Source: Pedobacter chitinilyticus
Lineage (GTDB): Bacteria > Bacteroidota > Bacteroidia > Sphingobacteriales > Sphingobacteriaceae
Reading direction: 5' to 3'
DNA: 24,000 bases
Assembly: GCF_003313385.1 (NCBI RefSeq)
Contig: NZ_QMHN01000002.1
Location: 110,603 to 134,602, forward strand
The translations under genes and the position numbers were made by a program. This document shows positions 448 through 23,365 of the stretch, piece by piece; within the stretch, counting starts at the first letter, position 1, and the number at the start of each line of letters is the position of its first letter. The notes below the pieces were generated by a model. It was not told the origin of the DNA. It made no database searches and saw nothing but the letters and a program-made list of their open reading frames with translations.

Positions 448-3400
448 CTAATGAAAGTCATCTCTATCGCGCCCATCATTTAAGAATTTCTGGGATAAGC
501 CATATCTGATGTTATTGAATTTGCTTTCCTGCTTCATCGAAAGGAAATAGTTGATGTTTTCATCCGTTTCTCCCCAACGTTCCAGAACGAATGAGATCAT
601 GATAAGGTGCTCATAGACAAATGGAAGTTCCACTTCCGCCGGCATTGTCACACGATAGCGCTTTATTATCTCCAAGAGGTAAGGCGTAAACCTTCTCAGA
701 TATTTTTCGTTGAACTTGTTATAGAAAAAATAGGCAATATATTTCAGACAGGATTCCAGACATGGCTCAGATTGCAACAATAGTTTATTCAGAAGTGCAA
801 TAATATGCATTTCATAGGCCGTGCGCTCATTGCGATAGTACAATAGACTCATCAACTCATTTACAGCGCCCAATACGTTATTATGCTCCCTGCTGGTTAG
901 TCCTTCCAAAAGGTCATTATAGCTCCTCTGTTGGATATGGTGACGATCTATAAGATCAACAGTTTCATCATAACCAGGAAGTGTGTGCAACACCTGCTTC
1001 TCGTCTCTGAGAAAATCACGCATCTCTTCCAGAATGAAGGCGAACAGGTTTTCAATCATCGAAGCGCCCTGACGGACTTGCATCCACTCATTGATCTTTG
1101 CGGTGGTCTCCCGCAATTTTTGATAGATGACCGCAATTTCGGCGGGACTCCATTGAAGCCCTGTTACGGTATGGTTTTCTTCGCGGAGAGCCGTTAAGGA
1201 AATAAATTCCGAATTACCGGAAACCCCAGTGCTGTCTGGCCTGAATCCCGCATTCCAGAGGTCGCTGCTCTTAAGAATGGCATCCTTGATTTGTTGCAAA
1301 GCTCTCTCCCGTTTAAACGCACCGTCGGGTATCTTTTGGATCAGCTCATCCGTACCGATGAAGTGCAAAAATATTCGCCAGGATCTCGGATTGCTTACCT
1401 TTGAATAGTCCATATCCATCACCACGTTGCTGATTGCCAGATTCTCACCTTCAGTAAGAAGCTCCGACATGTTGCCTAACGCAAAGATCAGATTGGGTTG
1501 TTCATTTAACCTGTCGATAATAGGGAAAAAGCCCTTTACAAGTAACTTCCTAATTTCGGCTGATTTATGTTTAAGGGCATGGTTATTGGCCAATGCGTAA
1601 AGATAGTCACTCACAAGATCAGAAGGCACTTCCGATTTTTCAATGGCGTTCAAGCACGTATCGACCACTATGGCCAAAATTTTGGGAGCCTGAACATATC
1701 TGAGCGCTTTTTCCAGGAAATCGTCGCTTCTGTCGAATCTTGGTACAAATAATTTTCCATTTTTCTCCGCGTCTTTCCAATACTGTTTAAAAAATGGTTC
1801 CCAGAGCGATGGACTAACGGCAAGTACCAGCTCCGAAAGAAAAATCGGAATGCTTTTGAGATATTTTCTGGGAACATGTTTATCTGAATAGGCATGGGTC
1901 GTACTGCTTGCTATCCTTTCCAGCTCTTCGTTGGTAATATGTTCATTGTAGATATAGTCCTGGGCCAATCTTTTTAACATTTTCTCATCGCTATACTGTA
2001 GTGCATAAAAAAGCGTAGGAAAAGGATAATAAGAAAAAGATCTGCTTGCGACCAGATAAAAATCATCGCTACTAAGCCAAGCGGTGTAATTACCAACAGC
2101 AGGAAAACCGCTCTGCATAAGGAGACCTAATACCTGAAAGCTAAGTCCGTGGTCAGAATTATTGGTAAGGGTGATAGAACGGTTGAAACTTGCTTTACCA
2201 CTACCATATGGAACAATTTTTTTCCTTGCCCTTTTCAGCTGATCAATCAGAAGCGTTACATGTTGGTTTAACTCATGTAATCCCTTGGCCTTTAACTGAC
2301 GCCTTTCTTCTAGCTGCGCTCGGTCATCTCCATACCGTTCCCGAAGTCCCGAAAGGAGTTCAAGTTTATAAAGATGTTCCTGAAGATTTCTTTGAGTCTC
2401 TTCTTTTAGCACTCCCCTGGCCCGCTGCTGATCAATCAAGCTTAAAAGCCCGGCTTTATTGATTAGCCAATGACCATTGGCGCGCCAAATGGCCAACGAC
2501 CTGTTCATGCTGCTAAAATTCAGATTTATGGCATCCTTAAGCGCTACGAGATACGACAGTTCTTGCTGGATTTTTCCATTTTTGGCCACCTCCAAAACTT
2601 TGATAATACTAACAGCCCGGTCATTTTCCAGCTTCCAGATTGAATCTCGGAGATCTTCCAAAAGAAATCCAAAGTGAGCATCTCTTCCAGCTTTCTCCCC
2701 CATCCCCATTAGAAATGCAAATTCGTTCGTAGTTTTATCAAAGATCGAGGAATGCGGATAATACTGTGATCTGATCAGCTGCAATATGCCAAATAGTTCA
2801 GCTGAAGGTATCTTGGTTTTCCGGTCCCGAACATAACGAACATAGTTTTGCAGAAAATCCGCACGCACAGCATCATAGTTAAAGTGTGGTGAGGGGAGTC
2901 TGTTAAATTCTGCCAGTTCTCCGATATCAATTAGTCTTCGGCTAAAACTTTTTTCATTCGGTATTTTACGATCCATGCTTCGAATTGGCAGCTCTTTACA
3001 CAGGTTTTCATATTGGCTCCTTTTGTAAAGTTCCACAGCCGCCACTGCTCTGGCCTGCGACGCGGTTTTCCTCAAATAATCAAAAAATAGAGAAAACACC
3101 GCCTTAATGTGTAGTGCCTTCTGCGCTTTGCTCATCGTATCAAAATCCGCCGACGGATCGATATCTCCCCCGACTTCCCTTTTTAAAAAAGCAACACAAT
3201 CAGGATGGAGAATCGGGATGAAGGCAATTTGATGGTTCTCATGGAAGATTGCAGTAGCGGCATCTGCCGGCTTGTTTGATGTGCCGATCAGATAAATCTT
3301 TTTCATGCCGCCCTTATCATCGTGCTCAAGTGGTTTTTTGAAAATAATATCACGCACCCATCCAATCCACGCCAGAAAGTTCGGATCGGTACCTGAAAAA

Positions 3401-4470
3401 CCGACCAGGCAAAAAGCTTCACGAAGCAGAGAAATCCTCATAAGCTGGGTGAAAGCCTCGTGTTTAGTCGGATAGGTATCATAGTCCTCCTGACAGATAA
3501 CATAATGTTTTCTTGGATCAGTATCGAACCCAAACTTATCTTCAGGGCTTAGCCTTAAAGATCCATGTAATTTAATAATGTTTCCATTACGTTTAAGGGC
3601 CAGCTCCGCCGAATGCCGTACGAGATTTGCGCAGTCCCGTAACTGCTCTTCCACCTTGTTAAGAAGCTCCTTATGTCGATCTAATTCTGACTTCTTCCAA
3701 TATAACTCCCCATTTACCTGTCCCTGTGGAGCACGCTGCTCCGCCAAGCTCCTTTCATGCTGATCCCACTCCTCTTTTTCAGCATCACTTAGCACATATG
3801 AAAGATTTCGGATCTTATACCCCTCAACCTTCTTTTCCAGATCGGTGATCAGGTCATCTATATCCTTCTTTTTTTGGCCGAGCTCCTCAAGTTCCTTCTC
3901 GAGTGCATCCATGATCTCCCTTGTCATTTTTTTTTGTTCCGTCAGAGATCTTTCCAAGTCTTGATCGGTACAGGATTCCAAAAGATTGTCATAATTGGTC
4001 GTGAAGATGTTGTTCCATGGCAACCTGACCAACTTTTTATGCAGCTCCAGATCTTTATCAGTGAGGACTCGCTTTTTAGGTACACCGTCAAGATCATAAC
4101 AGAGATTATGCTCCTTATCAACAAACGGTGTTACCTGCTCGATGTAGTGTTCCAGTGCTTCCCTGTAGCCCATACGGTCTCTGTACAGGCTGGGCACCTT
4201 AAGGTAGCCTACTTCATCAATAAATTCATTGTACCTGTTTTCGAGGTAAGCTTTCTTTTTGCTTGCGGGTAGCTTGGTCTTTTTGAAATCCTCCTCAAAT
4301 TGTTTGCCTTTGATCTTGTCTACCATCCGATAGAGCAATTGTCCCCAACTGGGAAAGGCCGGATCAACATTCTTACTAAAGCCTGCCCCTACCAATATGG
4401 AAAGGTCTTGGCCGCTGAGATTTTTCTGAAGCTTTTCCAGATGGTGAACATAAGGTGTGTTAGAGCTCAT
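448..4470 (-). CDS. Giant SIR2-domain protein (SIR2_2 / defence-associated sirtuin-like) with a ~960-aa helical C-terminal region of unknown function
   Basis: A 1340-aa ORF. The N-terminus carries the SIR2_2 hallmark motifs in order: ILVGAGFS (aa 25-32), FPSWGQLL, IFTTNYDNLLE (aa 155-165), IIKLHGSL (aa 298-305) and CLVGFSGTDPNF (aa 354-365). The same motif set is seen in ThsA and DSR-type NADases. The C-terminal part has no motif I recognise. Confidence 0.8.
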   Translation of the reverse strand: MSSNTPYVHHLEKLQKNLSGQDLSILVGAGFSKNVDPAFPSWGQLLYRMVDKIKGKQFEEDFKKTKLPASKKKAYLENRYNEFIDEVGYLKVPSLYRDRMGYREALEHYIEQVTPFVDKEHNLCYDLDGVPKKRVLTDKDLELHKKLVRLPWNNIFTTNYDNLLESCTDQDLERSLTEQKKMTREIMDALEKELEELGQKKKDIDDLITDLEKKVEGYKIRNLSYVLSDAEKEEWDQHERSLAEQRAPQGQVNGELYWKKSELDRHKELLNKVEEQLRDCANLVRHSAELALKRNGNIIKLHGSLRLSPEDKFGFDTDPRKHYVICQEDYDTYPTKHEAFTQLMRISLLREAFCLVGFSGTDPNFLAWIGWVRDIIFKKPLEHDDKGGMKKIYLIGTSNKPADAATAIFHENHQIAFIPILHPDCVAFLKREVGGDIDPSADFDTMSKAQKALHIKAVFSLFFDYLRKTASQARAVAAVELYKRSQYENLCKELPIRSMDRKIPNEKSFSRRLIDIGELAEFNRLPSPHFNYDAVRADFLQNYVRYVRDRKTKIPSAELFGILQLIRSQYYPHSSIFDKTTNEFAFLMGMGEKAGRDAHFGFLLEDLRDSIWKLENDRAVSIIKVLEVAKNGKIQQELSYLVALKDAINLNFSSMNRSLAIWRANGHWLINKAGLLSLIDQQRARGVLKEETQRNLQEHLYKLELLSGLRERYGDDRAQLEERRQLKAKGLHELNQHVTLLIDQLKRARKKIVPYGSGKASFNRSITLTNNSDHGLSFQVLGLLMQSGFPAVGNYTAWLSSDDFYLVASRSFSYYPFPTLFYALQYSDEKMLKRLAQDYIYNEHITNEELERIASSTTHAYSDKHVPRKYLKSIPIFLSELVLAVSPSLWEPFFKQYWKDAEKNGKLFVPRFDRSDDFLEKALRYVQAPKILAIVVDTCLNAIEKSEVPSDLVSDYLYALANNHALKHKSAEIRKLLVKGFFPIIDRLNEQPNLIFALGNMSELLTEGENLAISNVVMDMDYSKVSNPRSWRIFLHFIGTDELIQKIPDGAFKRERALQQIKDAILKSSDLWNAGFRPDSTGVSGNSEFISLTALREENHTVTGLQWSPAEIAVIYQKLRETTAKINEWMQVRQGASMIENLFAFILEEMRDFLRDEKQVLHTLPGYDETVDLIDRHHIQQRSYNDLLEGLTSREHNNVLGAVNELMSLLYYRNERTAYEMHIIALLNKLLLQSEPCLESCLKYIAYFFYNKFNEKYLRRFTPYLLEIIKRYRVTMPAEVELPFVYEHLIMISFVLERWGETDENINYFLSMKQESKFNNIRYGLSQKFLNDGRDRDDFH

Positions 4471-4602
4471 TTAGTGTGGGCGTAAAAGGTTATTTGGCCT
4501 TTAAAATTATCCATTTACTTTTTGCAATCCAAATTACATTCCCTATAGGGTAACGAGACTTTGATACCCTTCGGTTTCATTTAATAAAAGTATCTTTACT
4601 TC

Positions 4603-4848
4603 ATGAAGTCAAACTTTACATTAACTGTAGCGGAACATCAGCTCGACCTTATTTCAATGAATGCAGGATGTCCTAAACTATTCCAGATTTTTGTCAATGT
4701 CGAAGGACAAAGGAAACGCTTCCATTTACAAGGTGATGGAGCAACCTATCTTTCATTTGCCAATCCAGAGGATTGTCCCCCATTTCTTTTGGCTCTCGAA
4801 AAGGACATTGCCAACATGATATTCGACCAATACAGAAAAATTAGTTAA
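4603..4848 (+). CDS. Small hypothetical protein (81 aa), first gene of the KAP NTPase operon
   Basis: The ORF has balanced, protein-like composition. It ends 19 nt before the KAP NTPase start on the same strand. No recognisable motif. Confidence 0.45.
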   Translation: MKSNFTLTVAEHQLDLISMNAGCPKLFQIFVNVEGQRKRFHLQGDGATYLSFANPEDCPPFLLALEKDIANMIFDQYRKIS

Positions 4849-4867
4849 CTCCATACAACAGCTGAGC

Positions 4868-7027
4868 ATGCAGACAGATAAAGCAATCACAAACCACACG
4901 GAGGACAAACTGAATAGAGAGATGTTTGTCAACGCATTGGCCCAGGAAATCCTCGCAATCCAGAATCGAGATTGTACAGTGATCGGTCTATATGGTAAAT
5001 GGGGGGCGGGAAAGACCAGCATTATCGGATTATTGGAACAGCTTCTGCATGAGAAGTATTATTTCACTGCCTATTTTAATCCTTGGAGATACAAATCCGA
5101 GGATATTATCCTTAGGGAACTGTTCATGAAGATAATAGAAGGCGCACGCAGCGATCGCAAGCTAGAAAGCAAATGGGAGAAACTGGGCGTGCTATTCTCA
5201 GAGTACGGTCAGTTTATTTCTCTGCCTTCTGCAAATATCAAAGGTATAAAAGTAGATTTTTCCAAGCCATTGCAAGGGCTGGTTACAGGCTTAGGAAGAT
5301 TATTTAAGGGAAAATCAACAATAGATGATAAGAAGGCCGCCATCAACGAGATTCTTGACCAACTTGCGGTGCCTCTGGTGATCTTCATCGATGATGTCGA
5401 CAGGCTTGATGTAGCTGAAATCCGTTCGCTATTTAAGCTGGTCAAACTGACCGCAGACTTTAATAAGCTAATCTATATCATTGCCTTTGATGAGGATATA
5501 GTAGCAAAAGCCTTGGCACAGAACTATGGCACCGGTGAACCTGGCGACGGCAAGGCCTTCCTGGAAAAGATAGTCCAACTGCCATTGAGGATTCCAACTG
5601 TACCCAATAAGGAACGATTTACATACACCATAAATCTTCTTAACGAATGGGCCCAATCACAAGCTTTCGAGTTTCCCGAAAAATATCAAGCGTTATTCGT
5701 CAAACATTTCAAAGATCTTCATGACAACTTTATCAAGACACCCAGGGATTCCAAACGCCTATTGAATGCCGTCTCCTTTTCCTATCAATGTCTAAGGGAT
5801 GAAGTAAATGTTTACGATATCGTTCTGCTAGAAACAATACGCATATTTCTTCCCGCGGTTTTTGACGAGCTTTTAGCGGTACAAAGCGAGCTTTTCAAGT
5901 TGCAAACGGGGGAGAACGGCTACACGATAAACAATAAAAAAAGCGATGCAGGCGTTGCTTTTGAAAAGCGTATAAACATGTATGCGCACACCCTTCCACT
6001 TATAGCTGATGTAACGGATTATCTCTTTCCCTTCAACAATCTCTTTAATCTCGGCTTTAATAGTAACAGAAGCGAAAAGATTGCAGATCTTTTCGCCCAC
6101 CAACGGGTCGCCATCCGAAGGTATTTTGACCGTTTTACCGAGTTTAAGATTGCAGGGGAAGACATTTCTGACCTAGAGTTCAAAGGTATTCTTTCCAGGT
6201 TCAACACTTTACCCTATTCGGAACTTACTGATGAAATACAACGGCTTTGCATGTTCCCTAAAAATGACATCTACCGACTGTTCCATTATTTCAGAAGTCA
6301 ATTGGAAGAGACAGGTAAGATAAACGTTGCAACCATGCTGTGTACGAAAGAACATTTCTACTTCGACAACTCATTTGAATCAAGATTTTTCAGGATGATA
6401 GACTTATCGCTAGAGCTTTTAGCCGGAGTTGGCCAAATGAAACGTATCGAGAGCCTAAGACAGATTATATTCACCTGTCCAAGCATCCATCATTCACTGT
6501 CCATCATCTATGACGCACAATATGTAAGTGATAGGCAAAGAGATGCTAAATTTCATCCAATTGAAGCACTAAAGGATATCACAAAAGAGTACATTTTCAA
6601 GATACAACGGTTGCCCTTAGCTGATTATTTTAAAAATGTCGATGATGAAAAATGTGATATCCTCTGCCATCTGATTGACCAGTACGGTGACGCAGAAAAA
6701 TTCAGGACGGAACTGATCAACTTTTTAGATCAAAAACCTGAAAACGTCATGCTGTTCATAAAATCGATGTTGCCCATGAGCTATATCAATATGTCTCCGA
6801 TTGGCCAGTATAGCAACCGCATAGATTATGACAAGTTCCGCACCATTGAACAATATGTCCGAAGGGAGGTACTTATTGAAAAATGTCTAATTGTGTACCC
6901 CGATGCATACCAAAAAATAGATATTAACCCAGATGAACGCCAAAGCATGGAAATTGATCATAAGATCATTATTCAATACCTGCTGTTTGCACGGTCTGAA
7001 CAGGCGACAGAGATGTCGGATGGTTGA
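4868..7027 (+). CDS. KAP-family P-loop NTPase
   Basis: Walker A GLYGKWGAGKTS (aa 40-51, nt 4985-5020), the KAP-typical FNPWRY just after it, and Walker B VIFIDDVDRL (aa 171-180, nt 5378-5407). A long helical C-terminal region follows. No obvious transmembrane insert lies between Walker A and B. Confidence 0.8.
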   Translation: MQTDKAITNHTEDKLNREMFVNALAQEILAIQNRDCTVIGLYGKWGAGKTSIIGLLEQLLHEKYYFTAYFNPWRYKSEDIILRELFMKIIEGARSDRKLESKWEKLGVLFSEYGQFISLPSANIKGIKVDFSKPLQGLVTGLGRLFKGKSTIDDKKAAINEILDQLAVPLVIFIDDVDRLDVAEIRSLFKLVKLTADFNKLIYIIAFDEDIVAKALAQNYGTGEPGDGKAFLEKIVQLPLRIPTVPNKERFTYTINLLNEWAQSQAFEFPEKYQALFVKHFKDLHDNFIKTPRDSKRLLNAVSFSYQCLRDEVNVYDIVLLETIRIFLPAVFDELLAVQSELFKLQTGENGYTINNKKSDAGVAFEKRINMYAHTLPLIADVTDYLFPFNNLFNLGFNSNRSEKIADLFAHQRVAIRRYFDRFTEFKIAGEDISDLEFKGILSRFNTLPYSELTDEIQRLCMFPKNDIYRLFHYFRSQLEETGKINVATMLCTKEHFYFDNSFESRFFRMIDLSLELLAGVGQMKRIESLRQIIFTCPSIHHSLSIIYDAQYVSDRQRDAKFHPIEALKDITKEYIFKIQRLPLADYFKNVDDEKCDILCHLIDQYGDAEKFRTELINFLDQKPENVMLFIKSMLPMSYINMSPIGQYSNRIDYDKFRTIEQYVRREVLIEKCLIVYPDAYQKIDINPDERQSMEIDHKIIIQYLLFARSEQATEMSDG

Positions 7028-7121
7028 AATGATGCACTCAATTTTCTATCTGTTTGAAATTACAATTATCACCTATCACACCTGAATAGTCTATCATTTT
7101 AATCCCTCACAAAAGACTTAC

Positions 7122-8558
7122 ATGGCCCTTCTAAAGACAAATCTTACACTAGGAAATCGATTTGTTATACTTGATGGCAACTACGATAAAGCGCAGCTAT
7201 CTTTTATAGCACCAGACCCTAAAGATCGCAGTAAACTTACTGTGGTTACTTATGACCACCCTGGAGAACCGATCATTACGCCTTTGGACAACTTCAGTTC
7301 GGATTACTTTCCAGACCTATTACACCCTAGAATAATCCTGACCAGAAGACAATCAGAATTACGTTCGATATTTATCAAGATCCAGCATGAACTTGCGCAA
7401 ACCCTATATGGTTCCAGTAACCGTCGGCTTACACTTAACCAAACCCTGAAGAAACTGGTTAGCCTGGGCTGCGCGGACAATTCCGAAGCCGAGGCCATGC
7501 TAATGCTCTATCTGGCAAGGGGGCTTTTCACATTTACCAAACTAAAGAAAGAGGGCTACATTTCGTTAAACAAGAACCTGCAAGGCATGGAGGACATGAA
7601 GCGGTTCCTGCATAGCATTACCGACGAGCTTATTTCAAAAAGCGACCGTATCGAGCTATTGGTCAAGCACAACGTTTCAAAGGGCAATTACAGGGAAATG
7701 CTCCTGCGCTCTGTTCTGCAGAAATATGTTCCTAAAAAATATGAAGTAGTTACCGGTTTCATCGAAGGCTGCCATCGCCAGTGTGATATCATCATCTACG
7801 ATTCGCACAATTTCTCCCCCTATTTCCGTGAAGGCGATCTTGTTGTAGTTCCACATCAATCAGTGCGTGCGGTCATCGAAGTGAAGACGACCTTGGATGC
7901 CGGTGCGCTTGAGGAGGCGCTAGACCTATTATCGGACATCTCAAGGAATTATAATGATCCTGCTCCTTTCTTTAGGGCAGTCTTTGCCTTCAAAAAGGGT
8001 AATTATAAAACAGACGAAGCCTTGGCAACGGCGGTCAAGAAGTTCTACCACCGTAAGGATGCCAAAAGCGGAAAAGACAATACGATCCATGCTCTTTTCG
8101 AAACGATCAATACCTTCTGCGTGATGGATGAACAATGCCTGGTAACCGATGTGGTCGATTATACTTTCAATGACCATTCGATAAGGCCCAGGATATATTC
8201 GGTGAGATCTTCGACGACCGATCTGAGAGTTTATTCGGCTGCATTCTTCAGGGAACTGTTTTCCTATCTGGATGTCGAAAAACGTGCTAAAAGAGTTACC
8301 AAGGATTATTTCTGGTGGCTCAACGGGGAAATGCTTTATTACCATATACTCGATCTTTACGACAGGAGTTGGAAACCCCTTACGCAATTCAAGAACGAGC
8401 ACGACTGGACCGAAGACGGCTTATGGCAACGGGTGTCCGATCTGTACAACTGGAAAGCTGGATTGGTCAGTGCACAGGATATGGAAGAAAAATATTTTGC
8501 TGAAATACTCCATCCCAGGGACCTGCAAAAGATTGCCAAAGGAGGATATCCATTTTAA
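7122..8558 (+). CDS. PD-(D/E)xK nuclease-like protein (DUF6602-like core) with N- and C-terminal extensions
   Basis: Core aa 186-262 reads SKGNYREMLLRSVLQKYVPKKYEVVTGFIEG..CDIIIYDSHNFSPYF..VVVPHQSVRAVIEVKTTLD. This gives a D...(D/E)xK arrangement (D222/D227, E253, K255) and matches my recollection of the DUF6602 pattern. Same strand as the KAP gene, 94 nt downstream. Confidence 0.6.
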   Translation: MALLKTNLTLGNRFVILDGNYDKAQLSFIAPDPKDRSKLTVVTYDHPGEPIITPLDNFSSDYFPDLLHPRIILTRRQSELRSIFIKIQHELAQTLYGSSNRRLTLNQTLKKLVSLGCADNSEAEAMLMLYLARGLFTFTKLKKEGYISLNKNLQGMEDMKRFLHSITDELISKSDRIELLVKHNVSKGNYREMLLRSVLQKYVPKKYEVVTGFIEGCHRQCDIIIYDSHNFSPYFREGDLVVVPHQSVRAVIEVKTTLDAGALEEALDLLSDISRNYNDPAPFFRAVFAFKKGNYKTDEALATAVKKFYHRKDAKSGKDNTIHALFETINTFCVMDEQCLVTDVVDYTFNDHSIRPRIYSVRSSTTDLRVYSAAFFRELFSYLDVEKRAKRVTKDYFWWLNGEMLYYHILDLYDRSWKPLTQFKNEHDWTEDGLWQRVSDLYNWKAGLVSAQDMEEKYFAEILHPRDLQKIAKGGYPF

Positions 8559-8559
8559 C

Positions 8560-9111
8560 AGTCCTCTGGCTGGAAAATACGCTATAAGCACCTTCCCTTT
8601 ACCCTATAGCGGACCTCCGATCCCCTTTCTCAGAGGTACCGTTACCAACTATTTGCGTTGACCTATGCCCGCTGCCACGCACGGGCCTGCCCCAGGCTAA
8701 GGCCATTGCGGCCAGCGGCTGATCTGCCCTTCCAAACAGACTATGCAAAGCTACGGACGGCCATTGTCCTCCGAAACTCTTCGGCGCAGTGCCTGCGCCT
8801 TGCCTTGCGGTTTCCCAAAAAAAATCTCCACCGACCGGTTCCGCCCTTTCCCGAAAGTTAGGGCGGCGGTCGGTCGTATTTTTTTCCGGAAAACTTTCTC
8901 CGGAAAATGACAGTCCGTTCCCGGGCAACGGTTTGAAAGGCCAGGCTAACGCCGCTTTTGAGCCCCACAATGACCGGGAGCCTAGTGGCCGAGTTCCCGC
9001 AGTGGTCCAAAGCGGGCAAATTGGCCACCTGAACAGCAAATAGCCTAGTAAGGGCCCGGCATCGGAGAAAGCGGGTTGGAAACCAACTGTCCGGCTACCT
9101 GAGTAAAAAGA
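8560..9111 (+). other. ORF-free, GC-rich, hairpin-dense non-coding region (3' UTR, terminator, then leader of the downstream operon)
   Basis: No protein-like ORF on either strand; the listed ORFs here are rich in G, R, P and W. Local hairpins: 8667-8686 (GCCCG/CGGGC), 8771-8784 (CCGAA/TTCGG), 8783-8799 (GGCGCAG/CTGCGCC), 8831-8873, 8886-8903 (CCGGA/TCCGG), 8915-8931 (CCGTT/AACGG), 8975-8999 (CGGGA/TCCCG), 9002-9028 (GTGG(T)CC/GGCCAC) and 9075-9087 (GTTGG/CCAAC). CCAGGCTAA occurs twice (8692-8700, 8941-8949) and TCCGGAAAA twice (8885-8893, 8899-8907). Confidence 0.4.
8817..8885. terminator. Putative bidirectional intrinsic terminator
   Basis: An A8 run (8817-8824) precedes a long GC-rich hairpin. 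CCGACC 8831-8836 pairs with GGTCGG 8868-8873, G8837 can pair with C8867, and CCGCCCT 8841-8847 pairs with AGGGCGG 8860-8866. A T7 run follows at 8879-8885. Confidence 0.55.
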
Positions 9112-9164
9112 ACGTCTGCTGGTACACCTCCAGCACTGATGAGACCTCAGGTAGGTCGAAACGT
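9112..9164 (+). ncRNA. Type III hammerhead self-cleaving ribozyme; predicted cleavage after C9116
   Basis: Stem III: ACGU 9112-9115 pairs with ACGU 9161-9164. The GUC cleavage triplet ends at C9116. Stem I: UGCUGG 9117-9122 pairs with CCAGCA 9130-9135, with loop UACACCU. Core CUGAUGA lies at 9136-9142. Stem II: GACC 9143-9146 pairs with GGUC 9154-9157, with loop UCAGGUA. Core GAA lies at 9158-9160 and A9161 pairs with U9115. Loop I ACCU (9126-9129) is complementary to loop II AGGU (9149-9152), which could form a tertiary contact. Confidence 0.8.
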
Positions 9165-9179
9165 AAACAAAAATGGCTT

Positions 9180-9617
9180 ATGCACTATTATGAACATGCG
9201 CTGCTAAGTGCACACAAATTTGGCTGCGCAATCGAAGACACCTTGCAGCTCCACAAACTGATGGATAGCTCCAAGTTCTTCTTTCCCGCCAGCCAGCACA
9301 GGTTGTTCTCGCACAACACATGGTTTGTCCATGTCCTTACCGAACTGATCGGTGACACCATTCCAAACTCCGTTAACGGCCAAAGACTATCTACGCGGGA
9401 CGTGCTGTACGAGCACCTGCGCGAAGACCATAACGGAAAGACCCCATCGCTGCAGGACTGGCTCGGCTGCCTGCACTTTGAGCTGGACGAACAGACAAGG
9501 ACCTGGTTCAACCACCCGCGGGGCAGCGACAAGAACCTGCTCAAAGAAATCAAATCACTGATCCTAAACCCCATTGACAATGAACAACCTACCCCTATCG
9601 ATGCAACAGCGATGTGA
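9180..9617 (+). CDS. Hypothetical protein (145 aa), first gene after the ribozyme
   Basis: The ORF MHYYEHALLSAHKFGCAIEDTLQLHKLMDSSKFF... has protein-like composition. Its ATG lies 15 nt after the ribozyme 3' end. No family assigned with confidence. Confidence 0.55.
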   Translation: MHYYEHALLSAHKFGCAIEDTLQLHKLMDSSKFFFPASQHRLFSHNTWFVHVLTELIGDTIPNSVNGQRLSTRDVLYEHLREDHNGKTPSLQDWLGCLHFELDEQTRTWFNHPRGSDKNLLKEIKSLILNPIDNEQPTPIDATAM

Positions 9618-22435: not shown

Positions 22436-23365
22436 ATGATAGAACCCTCTATTAAGGATGAATTTCTGGACCTCTTCTATGCTGATATCGTTGATTTGGA
22501 ACTTGAAAACTCCAATAGGCTCAATGTATTCACGCTGAGGATCAGCAATAACAGTTTTGCCTATAGTGATCTGGTAGAACATTTGGGAAACAAACTATAT
22601 CATTTTGCCTTATCTAGGAACGAAATAAAAGTATTAAAGGAATCCGATCAGCTAAATACCTTAATTAGAAAATCGAAAGAAAAGCTCGTCGATTATATTG
22701 AAAGGGAAAAGGAGGAAAAAAAACTGACCGGAACAGAAGGTGGTGAATTAGGTGAACTCCTACTGTACTGTCTGCTCGAATGCCATTTAAAGGCGCCCAA
22801 GATCCTAACAAAACTGGAAATAAAAACGTCCCAACAGAAGTATGTCAATGGTGCCGATGGTGTCCACCTATTAAAGGTAAATGAGAAGGATTACCAATTG
22901 ATCTTTGGGGAATCAAAACTGCACGCTGATCTTACCCAGGGCATCTATAAGGCATTCGAATCCATAGGTACACTCCTGGAAAACAGAAGCAAGAAACTCA
23001 ATTTTGAAATTGATCTGGTGAACAGCCAGCTTTTAAAGGATACCTTTGACGATCAAACCTATAATACTATTAAAAAAATCCTCCTACCGAGTGCCAGGGA
23101 AGATGCTACCAATATGGATTATTCCTTCGGAATATTTCTCGGGTTTGACCTTGCCATCACTGAAGAGGAATTGAAGAAGAAAAATAGTGATTTTAGGGAC
23201 GCGGTCCGAGCAAGGATTAAAAAGGAAATAGAGGAAAAAGTTGAATCGATCAACTTTCAGATAAGAAAGGAGCACTTCACCGGGTATAATTTCTATCTAT
23301 ATATCATCCCGTTCAGCGACCTGGCTAAAAATAGGCTGGAAATCATCAAAAGCATAAGCGAATGA
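22436..23365 (+). CDS. hamA: Hachiman HamA (DUF1837-type)
   Basis: GGELGELLLYCLLECHLKAPKILTKLEIKTS...VNGADGVHLL...LIFGESKLH matches the DUF1837/HamA core pattern. The ATGA start/stop overlap couples it to a downstream helicase gene. Confidence 0.8.
   Translation: MIEPSIKDEFLDLFYADIVDLELENSNRLNVFTLRISNNSFAYSDLVEHLGNKLYHFALSRNEIKVLKESDQLNTLIRKSKEKLVDYIEREKEEKKLTGTEGGELGELLLYCLLECHLKAPKILTKLEIKTSQQKYVNGADGVHLLKVNEKDYQLIFGESKLHADLTQGIYKAFESIGTLLENRSKKLNFEIDLVNSQLLKDTFDDQTYNTIKKILLPSAREDATNMDYSFGIFLGFDLAITEEELKKKNSDFRDAVRARIKKEIEEKVESINFQIRKEHFTGYNFYLYIIPFSDLAKNRLEIIKSISE

Follow-up and report, generated by a model that had tools for sequence, protein, structure and literature searches.

A predicted type III hammerhead ribozyme at the end of a conserved structured cassette upstream of establishment genes in conjugative elements of Bacteroidota

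The 24,000-nucleotide (nt) stretch of Pedobacter chitinilyticus DNA analyzed here (contig NZ_QMHN01000002.1, positions 110,603 to 134,602; hereafter the window) is, by its gene content, part of a Bacteroidota conjugative element. Positions 9112–9164 of its + strand hold what sequence and comparative analysis identify as a genuine and conserved type III hammerhead ribozyme. Ordinary in itself, this hammerhead is the 3' module of a cassette of about 350 nt, in which two other elements precede it, first a long hairpin and then a pseudoknotted RNA domain spanning some 175 nt. It is probably functional, ending the cassette with a self-cleavage that would insulate the first gene downstream from its leader. 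Catalogs of hammerheads in bacterial mobile elements date back to 2011; here one is locked in a fixed order of hairpin, leader, ribozyme and start codon, and the cassette precedes genes that an element needs immediately on entering a new cell. It is this fixed architecture in front of early-needed genes that makes a role testable, be it in mRNA stability and translation, in the release of a functional RNA or in expression from single-stranded DNA (ssDNA).

The RNA at 9112–9164 reads ACGUC|UGCUGG-UACACCU-CCAGCA-CUGAUGA-GACCU-CAGGU-AGGUC-GAA-ACGU, with the bar at the predicted cleavage point, and is divided as follows (bp, base pairs):

9112–9164, + strand: type III hammerhead ribozyme, read from the sequence, matched by Rfam RF00008 and supported by covariation in 16 copies
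9112–9115 with 9161–9164: stem III
C9116 (C17) | U9117: predicted cleavage point, following a GUC triplet of the NUH type that ends at C9116 (position 17 not G)
9117–9122 / 9130–9135: stem I, 6 bp
9136–9142: core CUGAUGA, in agreement with C3-U4-G5-A6-N7-G8-A9
9143–9146(7) / 9154(3)–9157: stem II, 4 bp, with an optional fifth pair 9147/9153
9158–9161: GAAA, that is G12-A13-A14 (GAA, 9158–9160) plus A15.1; A9161 pairs with U9115 (A15.1-U16.1)
9126–9129 with 9149–9152: loop I ACCU and the complementary loop II AGGU, forming a loop–loop pseudoknot

The original prediction had described a complete type III hammerhead at this site, and all of its coordinates proved correct. It had also held that no other CUGAUGA in the window possesses the hammerhead architecture. 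Indeed, CTGATGA occurs seven times (4.3 expected), and a descriptor of the full type III architecture gave a single match, at 9112–9164, and none in 200 shuffled windows. The Rfam model RF00008 aligns end to end with the site, from its first to its last position (31 bits, E 6.7e-5, 351 nt searched). Stem I of the window is two pairs longer than stem II, a difference that has been tied to pseudoknot-stabilized type III hammerheads (Perreault et al. 2011, PMC3088659).

Identification as a hammerhead is settled by comparative evidence, namely the retention of the core and the compensation of the stems. The homologs were drawn from genomes and assemblies as loci encoding relatives of DUF6915, the protein specified by the first gene after the ribozyme. 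A profile search located the cassette at 13 of 18 such distinct loci, with hosts comprising Pedobacter, Sphingobacterium, Pseudosphingobacterium, an unclassified Bacteroidetes bacterium and metagenomes. A Chitinophaga locus (L007) carries the ribozyme behind a shorter leader. Two copies each are present at loci L129, L152 and L002, the second L002 copy being partial, and no cassette was seen in the flank retrieved for four of the 18 loci, mostly of Chitinophagales. Pairs of the hammerhead were counted in an alignment of 16 copies (A8) and those of the leader domain in 14 copies. For the hammerhead counts the structure was set by hand because RNAalifold, applied to the whole cassette, misfolds the ribozyme into a CGUC:GAUG alternative.

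With this structure, 87% of the cells are paired as compared to 22–40% in slid controls, and double changes occur in 11 pairs, values reached by none of 500 shuffles. Stems I and II are 100% paired in all 16 copies and have double changes in six of ten pairs. Stem III ranges from 3 to 7 bp, its pair 16.4/15.4 alternating between G-C, A-U and G-U, and the A15.1-U16.1 pair is invariant (16/16). Compensatory changes across homologs are found in all three stems. The contact between loops I and II that the original prediction had proposed covaries, too: columns 17–20 and 43–46 of alignment A8 are 90.6% paired in one register and include double changes, the window having A-U where G-C is found elsewhere and C-G alternating with U-A or U-G. 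The neighboring protein is 57–80% identical across the sixteen copies, and the hammerhead core is retained. CUGAUGA is intact in 12 of the 16 copies, and A occupies the free position 7 in three; even the L008 hammerhead, with changes in all three stems and GUA in place of GUC, still fits the architecture. In both hammerheads of L002, an element of Pedobacter africanus (450–508 and 1935–1993), a U is inserted between A9 and G10.1, and stem II is composed of GGCC/GGCC.

Cleavage would most likely take place during transcription and independently of the host, parting the folded leader from the mRNA. Based on the sequence, we propose that the cassette would be transcribed in the sense of the genes, that stems I and II would fold together with their kissing loops, and that stem III would close once GAAACGU emerges. 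The RNA would then cut itself between C9116 and U9117 with no host factor, and the folded leader would depart with a 2',3'-cyclic phosphate end. A 5'-hydroxyl group (5'-OH) and the compact body of the ribozyme would form the beginning of the mRNA, and a short A-rich stretch devoid of a Shine-Dalgarno sequence would lead from there to the start codon. Bacteroidota do not depend on Shine-Dalgarno pairing. In this way, translation and stability of the first gene would be insulated from the large leader and the upstream context in a newly entered host. The distance between the end of the ribozyme and the start codon is 11–28 nt in every copy, whatever the first gene. The recurrence of the cassette before different first genes and in front of separate gene blocks, twice per element in L129, L152 and L002, fits a cis-acting expression module.

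If this proposal is true, the cassette represents a natural counterpart of the engineered insulator RiboJ. The latter is a synthetic construct made from the sTRSV hammerhead, with an extra hairpin that exposes the Shine-Dalgarno site. In either case the ribozyme separates a variable 5' leader from the translation start, to which its spacing is short and fixed in all copies of the cassette, and a constant mRNA with a 5'-OH and a ribozyme body would result. However, RiboJ removes a few promoter-derived bases whereas the cassette ribozyme would remove at least about 230 nt of conserved folded RNA, and the exposure of a Shine-Dalgarno site by RiboJ contrasts with a host phylum that does not rely on such pairing.

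Several observations weigh against a cleaving, insulating ribozyme. The 31 bits obtained for the window site fall short of the RF00008 gathering cut-off of 48.5 bits, which is a curated reporting threshold and no structural feature. Consequently, the hammerhead is missed by routine annotation; a default Rfam scan of the window is empty, and none of the 16 homologous loci scanned reaches the cut-off. Since a covariance-model score below threshold had been set beforehand as an outcome refuting the original prediction, the check formally went against it, but the comparative data outweigh this result. The minimum-energy fold favors an extension of stem I by CGUC:GAUG (−17.3 kcal/mol versus −15.4 kcal/mol for the catalytic structure). 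Stem III comprises only 3–7 bp, and the competing fold is ahead by 1.9 kcal/mol in nearest-neighbor energies, which leave out tertiary contacts. In four of the 16 copies, C replaces U at core position 4 (CCGAUGA; L001 2584–2641, L145 4585–4642, L152 8725–8782 and L139 2587–2644). Given the low activity of CUGA-turn single mutants in deep mutagenesis (PMC9901934), the existence of these copies indicates that fast cleavage may not be needed in every copy. Loop II of this C4 lineage is AGGCA, which lengthens the loop–loop pairing to 5 bp, and stems I and II are perfect despite leaders that are about 70% diverged; either slow cleavage is enough or U4C is tolerated in the scaffold of this lineage. 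Furthermore, neither a promoter nor a transcription start of the cassette could be assigned in our scans. Finally, a pure insulator role leaves the conserved 175-nt pseudoknotted domain and its invariant unpaired bases unexplained, and it is because of this elaborate leader conservation that other explanations are retained here.

The score below the Rfam cut-off, the U4C variants and the energy model that favors a competing fold could also be taken as signs of a chance match or of a decayed, inactive relic. Such an origin is extremely unlikely and close to refuted in view of the lack of matches in shuffled windows, the core and compensated stems kept in 16 diverged copies, and the perfect stems I and II that even the U4C lineage retains.

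Upstream of the ribozyme, the following elements make up the leader RNA:

8931–8964, + strand: P1 hairpin, closed by GG..CC in all 14 copies
8965–9104, + strand: pseudoknotted domain P2–P7, 41 pairs, covariation in 14 copies
8965–8968 / 9002–9005, + strand: P2
8975–8981 / 8993–8999, + strand: P3
8985–8990 (P3 loop) with 9023–9028, + strand: pseudoknot
9013–9017 / 9054–9058, + strand: P4
9035–9037 / 9043–9045, + strand: P5
9059–9067 / 9095–9104, + strand: P6
9071–9079 / 9083–9090, + strand: P7
9105–9111, + strand: A-rich single-stranded linker AAAAGAA from the leader domain to stem III, kept as GUAAAAAGA or CUAAAAUA in alignment A5

That the upstream leader is structured had been recognized in the original prediction, where it was regarded as mere structure; in fact it is a conserved RNA domain of seven helices and a pseudoknot (8931–9104). 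Its 41 pairs are 96.3% paired, with double changes in 23 of them, whereas slid controls are 27–45% paired and none of 500 shuffles matches. Pairing of the pseudoknot is complete (100%), and five of its six pairs covary. Between copies, P1 differs in its internal sequences and is constant in its closure, and the unpaired CUGAACAGCAAAUAGC.UAGUAAG is nearly invariant. In the covarying helices, 82 G.U cells stand against 6 A.C cells, and alifold of the leader alignment yields −25.4 kcal/mol for the + strand versus −14.3 kcal/mol for the − strand. The domain thus folds as RNA in the mRNA sense, which is also the folding sense of the ribozyme, implying that both are on one transcript; including the ribozyme, the folded RNA accounts for about 235 nt of the cassette. 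No Rfam 15 family matched the domain at the gathering level, with only noise appearing at E values up to 10, and we found no description of it in the literature. Taken together, the comparative data support it well as a candidate new class of structured RNA, and it is the part of the cassette most worth following.

All three modules co-occur in the 14 full copies. At locus L007 of Chitinophaga (198–455), an upstream conserved block, the long hairpin and the hammerhead are kept, P1–P7 are absent, and about 70 nt of unrelated sequence take the place of the pseudoknotted domain. The domain is therefore a separable module, and the ribozyme has a role without it. Of the leader domain, only the 3' half is present in front of the second L002 hammerhead; further copies of the domain are located at L129 3780–3931, at L008 2787–2931 and elsewhere. 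A protein-coding leader is ruled out by indels that break the frame within conserved blocks and by the paired covariation. That the invariant 5' box CUUUCUCC pairs with GGAGAAAG (9064–9071) was likewise discarded, as at least eight copies have uncompensated variants and the 3' partner is taken by P6.

The elaborate leader lends itself to the possible, though not probable, explanation that the ribozyme serves to mature the 3' end of the upstream RNA. The domain at 8931–9104 would then be a stand-alone non-coding RNA product and any effect on the mRNA secondary. It is conceivable, with the same reservation, that this RNA is protected by its cyclic-phosphate end and acts, for example, on a protein of the host or the element during establishment. 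The 23 covarying pairs, the fully paired pseudoknot and the long invariant unpaired stretches are characteristic of RNAs with a specific binding partner, the three modules stay together in all full copies, and release without host factors would suit an element that changes hosts. However, a trans-acting RNA would not need a cassette that is always placed directly before a start codon and repeated before separate operons. The presence of hairpin and ribozyme in L007 without the domain, which gives the ribozyme a role of its own, also argues against this explanation, as does the failure to find a complementary target in the window, where antisense targets of the invariant loop GAACAGCAAAUAGC do not exceed chance.

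A domain of aptamer size with a conserved pseudoknotted fold immediately 5' of a ribozyme might alternatively sense a ligand or protein and switch the hammerhead, which would make it a natural allosteric ribozyme. Conserved folded domains adjoin catalytic RNAs in 5' leaders also in the tandem riboswitch–ribozyme arrangements glmS and c-di-GMP-II with a group I intron; unlike these, the cassette has no communication helix and matches no Rfam aptamer family. Hammerhead loop I and the 5' strand of P4 are complementary to each other in most copies and change together, so that the P4 strand could compete with the loop–loop contact. Yet this correlation tracks two sequence lineages, is explicable by shared descent and is broken in the L129b copy. 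Since, in addition, the domain is joined to the ribozyme by an unpaired linker of 7–10 nt and not via a ribozyme stem, and is missing from L007, we consider a sensor very unlikely.

The 5' module of the cassette comprises two features:

about 8809–8894, no strand assigned: long GC-rich hairpin with an A8:T7-8 tract within its stem, supported by fold energy, a terminator scan and a covarying foot
8890–8901, + strand: nearly invariant box AAAACTTTCTCC directly 3' of the T tract, from alignments A5 and A6

The hairpin has a folding energy of −32.6 kcal/mol (z −4.0) and is picked up by the terminator scan, its double-stranded form resembling a terminator. To judge from its sequence, it is more elaborate than a plain terminator: the A:T tract is part of the stem, covariation is seen in the foot (TTTTTG/CAAAAA, TTTTAG/CTAAAA, TTTGGAC/GTCCAAA, TTCC/GGAA), and an internal bubble TCTCCA / GTCGTA is conserved, including in L007. 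Unlike the adjoining RNA domain, it displays no evident strand preference across copies (4 A.C, 0 G.U and 22 other single mismatches). The box AAAACTTTCTCC occurs once in the window and may be a transcription-start region; a pairing of this box with GGAGAAAG is unsupported by the variants in alignment A5.

Such a hairpin brings to mind the ssDNA promoters Frpo/ssi, reportedly treated by Masai and Arai in 1997. Elements of this kind are found in the leading regions of F-like and IncI plasmids (Samuel et al. 2024, PMC11541004). Like them, the cassette is a structured non-coding element of a few hundred bases (about 350 nt) that is repeated, co-oriented and located upstream of establishment genes of the ssb, ardA and methylase type; such repeated co-oriented copies are represented by the two each of L129, L152 and L002. 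Hence, the cassette could be the Bacteroidota counterpart of Frpo/ssi, its hairpin recruiting RNA polymerase on the incoming strand. Leader and ribozyme would then serve to free a translatable mRNA, and the hairpin, once double-stranded, would act as a terminator that silences the genes. Position, orientation and copy number are as for Frpo upstream of ssb, psiB and ardA (PMC11541004), and the genes run toward the mobilization genes as in F, from which it would follow that the template strand is the transferred one. In line with this, the A:T tract in the stem, the covarying foot and the bubble kept even in L007 are superfluous for a terminator.

As to promoters, no canonical + strand Bacteroidetes box (TAnnTTTG) is present within −330 to +300 of any copy, as an ssDNA promoter would allow. 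This absence is nevertheless uninformative because the motif occurs at chance frequency in the window and is not predictive of gene starts there. Moreover, no promoter boxes are assignable in the hairpin, and its mismatch counts do not single out either strand. A blastn search with 8800–9180 against 72,556 plasmids (PLSDB), F-like plasmids included, gave no match and thus no sequence homology to Frpo/ssi, and the search between primase and mobC did not locate an origin of transfer (oriT). The cassette also differs from Frpo in that its best-supported structure folds in the RNA sense rather than on the template strand, in having a ribozyme and in lacking identified promoter boxes. On balance, an Frpo-like function appears unlikely. 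Just as doubtful is the wider idea of an RNA-level establishment device, a ribozyme-containing Frpo analog that combines a hairpin working as ssDNA promoter and double-stranded DNA terminator with a new functional RNA and its release by the hammerhead. It is with little confidence, too, that an activity as decoy, sensor or polymerase modifier could be ascribed to the leader RNA of such a device.

For the insulating hammerhead, the closest precedents are the mobile-element ribozymes described by Perreault et al. (2011, PMC3088659), which flank ardA in Agrobacterium tumefaciens and lie directly upstream of ardA in three Legionella strains. The same study describes a loop I–II pseudoknot, reports cleavage, both in vitro and in E. 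coli, by hammerheads at the flanks of gene blocks and of ardA, and proposes that they cut long mobile-element transcripts into defined mRNAs (PMC3088659); the insulation suggested here would, if true, extend this proposal. Shared with the window are the canonical core, the loop I–II pseudoknot, a site between or before genes of a mobile element, the association with anti-restriction genes and the possibility of several copies per element. In contrast to those cases, which come from prophages of Proteobacteria or Firmicutes, the present one belongs to Bacteroidota conjugative elements, has type III topology, is invariably joined to a long hairpin and in most instances also to the 175-nt pseudoknotted domain, keeps a fixed short distance to the start codon and is known from sequence alone.

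The hammerhead itself thus adds one more member to a class already known to be very large, and an association of hammerheads with anti-restriction genes of mobile elements has precedents. The statement in the original prediction that no ribozyme-processed anti-defense operon was known was wrong in spirit, hammerheads beside ardA having been reported in 2011 (PMC3088659). New are a hammerhead lineage in Bacteroidota conjugative elements that as a whole falls below the Rfam reporting threshold and is invisible there, its fixed fusion to a long hairpin and to a pseudoknotted RNA domain matching nothing catalogued, and its recurrent placement before establishment genes.

The first gene after the ribozyme is the following:

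9180–9617, + strand: DUF6915 protein (Pfam PF21866, E 6e-23)

It starts 15 nt after stem III, and its product matches a protein of Pedobacter chitinilyticus with 100% identity; homologs invariably begin with the residues MHY. The gene opens a + strand array that follows a gap of 620 nt and consists of DUF6915, several unknown genes, ArdA, a ParB-like protein and a primase, after which come MobC, a relaxase, a YWFCY-type coupling protein and HamA. This bears out the establishment-type genes that had been predicted downstream. As in the F plasmid, the establishment genes run toward the mobilization genes. Between primase and mobC, the search for oriT revealed a terminator-like hairpin and no convincing inverted repeat, and for this reason 'leading region', the term under which the original prediction had placed the first gene, is an inferred designation. 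In other elements, genes beside the cassette include those for ArdA, single-stranded DNA-binding protein (SSB), an N6 methylase, ParB-like proteins and RadC, the paired copies of L129, L152 and L002 are all on the gene strand, and the cassette also occurs in mid-array among co-directional genes. From this gene content, the cassette can be said to head establishment and anti-restriction operons in integrative conjugative elements of Sphingobacteriales and Chitinophagales.

To the left of the 620-nt gap are genes for SIR2-like, KAP NTPase and DUF6602 proteins. Defense-type genes thereby flank the transfer region of the window (448–8558 and 22436–23365); they encode a 1340-amino acid SIR2-like protein, a KAP-family NTPase, a DUF6602 protein and a HamA-domain protein. 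In public assemblies, open reading frames of 100–117 amino acids are called over the cassette at L135 2513–2866, L129 2166–2477 (− strand) and L149 4398–4712 (− strand) and are probably false genes.

A metagenome pattern scan for the subfamily defined by stem II and core returned 120 loci, many of them unrelated type III hammerheads. They were of no use for context because none had DUF6915 or other operon genes. Unrelated type III hammerheads with a stem II of GACC/GGUC or GAUC/GAUC are found at L017, L026, L036, L040, L050, L072, L075, L077 and L085, and environmental contigs often carry two or three unrelated hammerheads on one short contig, sometimes on both strands. Three matches on viral contigs were rejected as chance matches in protein-coding sequence.

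One further conserved feature lies upstream of the cassette on the opposite strand:

8746–8753, − strand: Bacteroidetes-type −7 promoter box TAGCTTTG, directed away from the cassette, supported by positional conservation

This perfect −7 box is about 130 nt upstream, with TTTCG 19 nt upstream of it on the − strand. CAAAnnTA recurs at the equal relative position in nine of 14 copies and in L007, the two n positions being variable. Only this conservation counts as evidence for the box because the motif is as frequent in the window as expected by chance. No gene follows downstream of the box in the window, nor does Flavo-1 or any other Rfam family match to the left of the cassette there. In the Sphingobacterium element L145, a Flavo-1 RNA (RF01705; 3937–4010, − strand) scores 61 bits, above its cut-off, and lies downstream of the conserved promoter box of the opposite strand, at a distance of about 210 nt.
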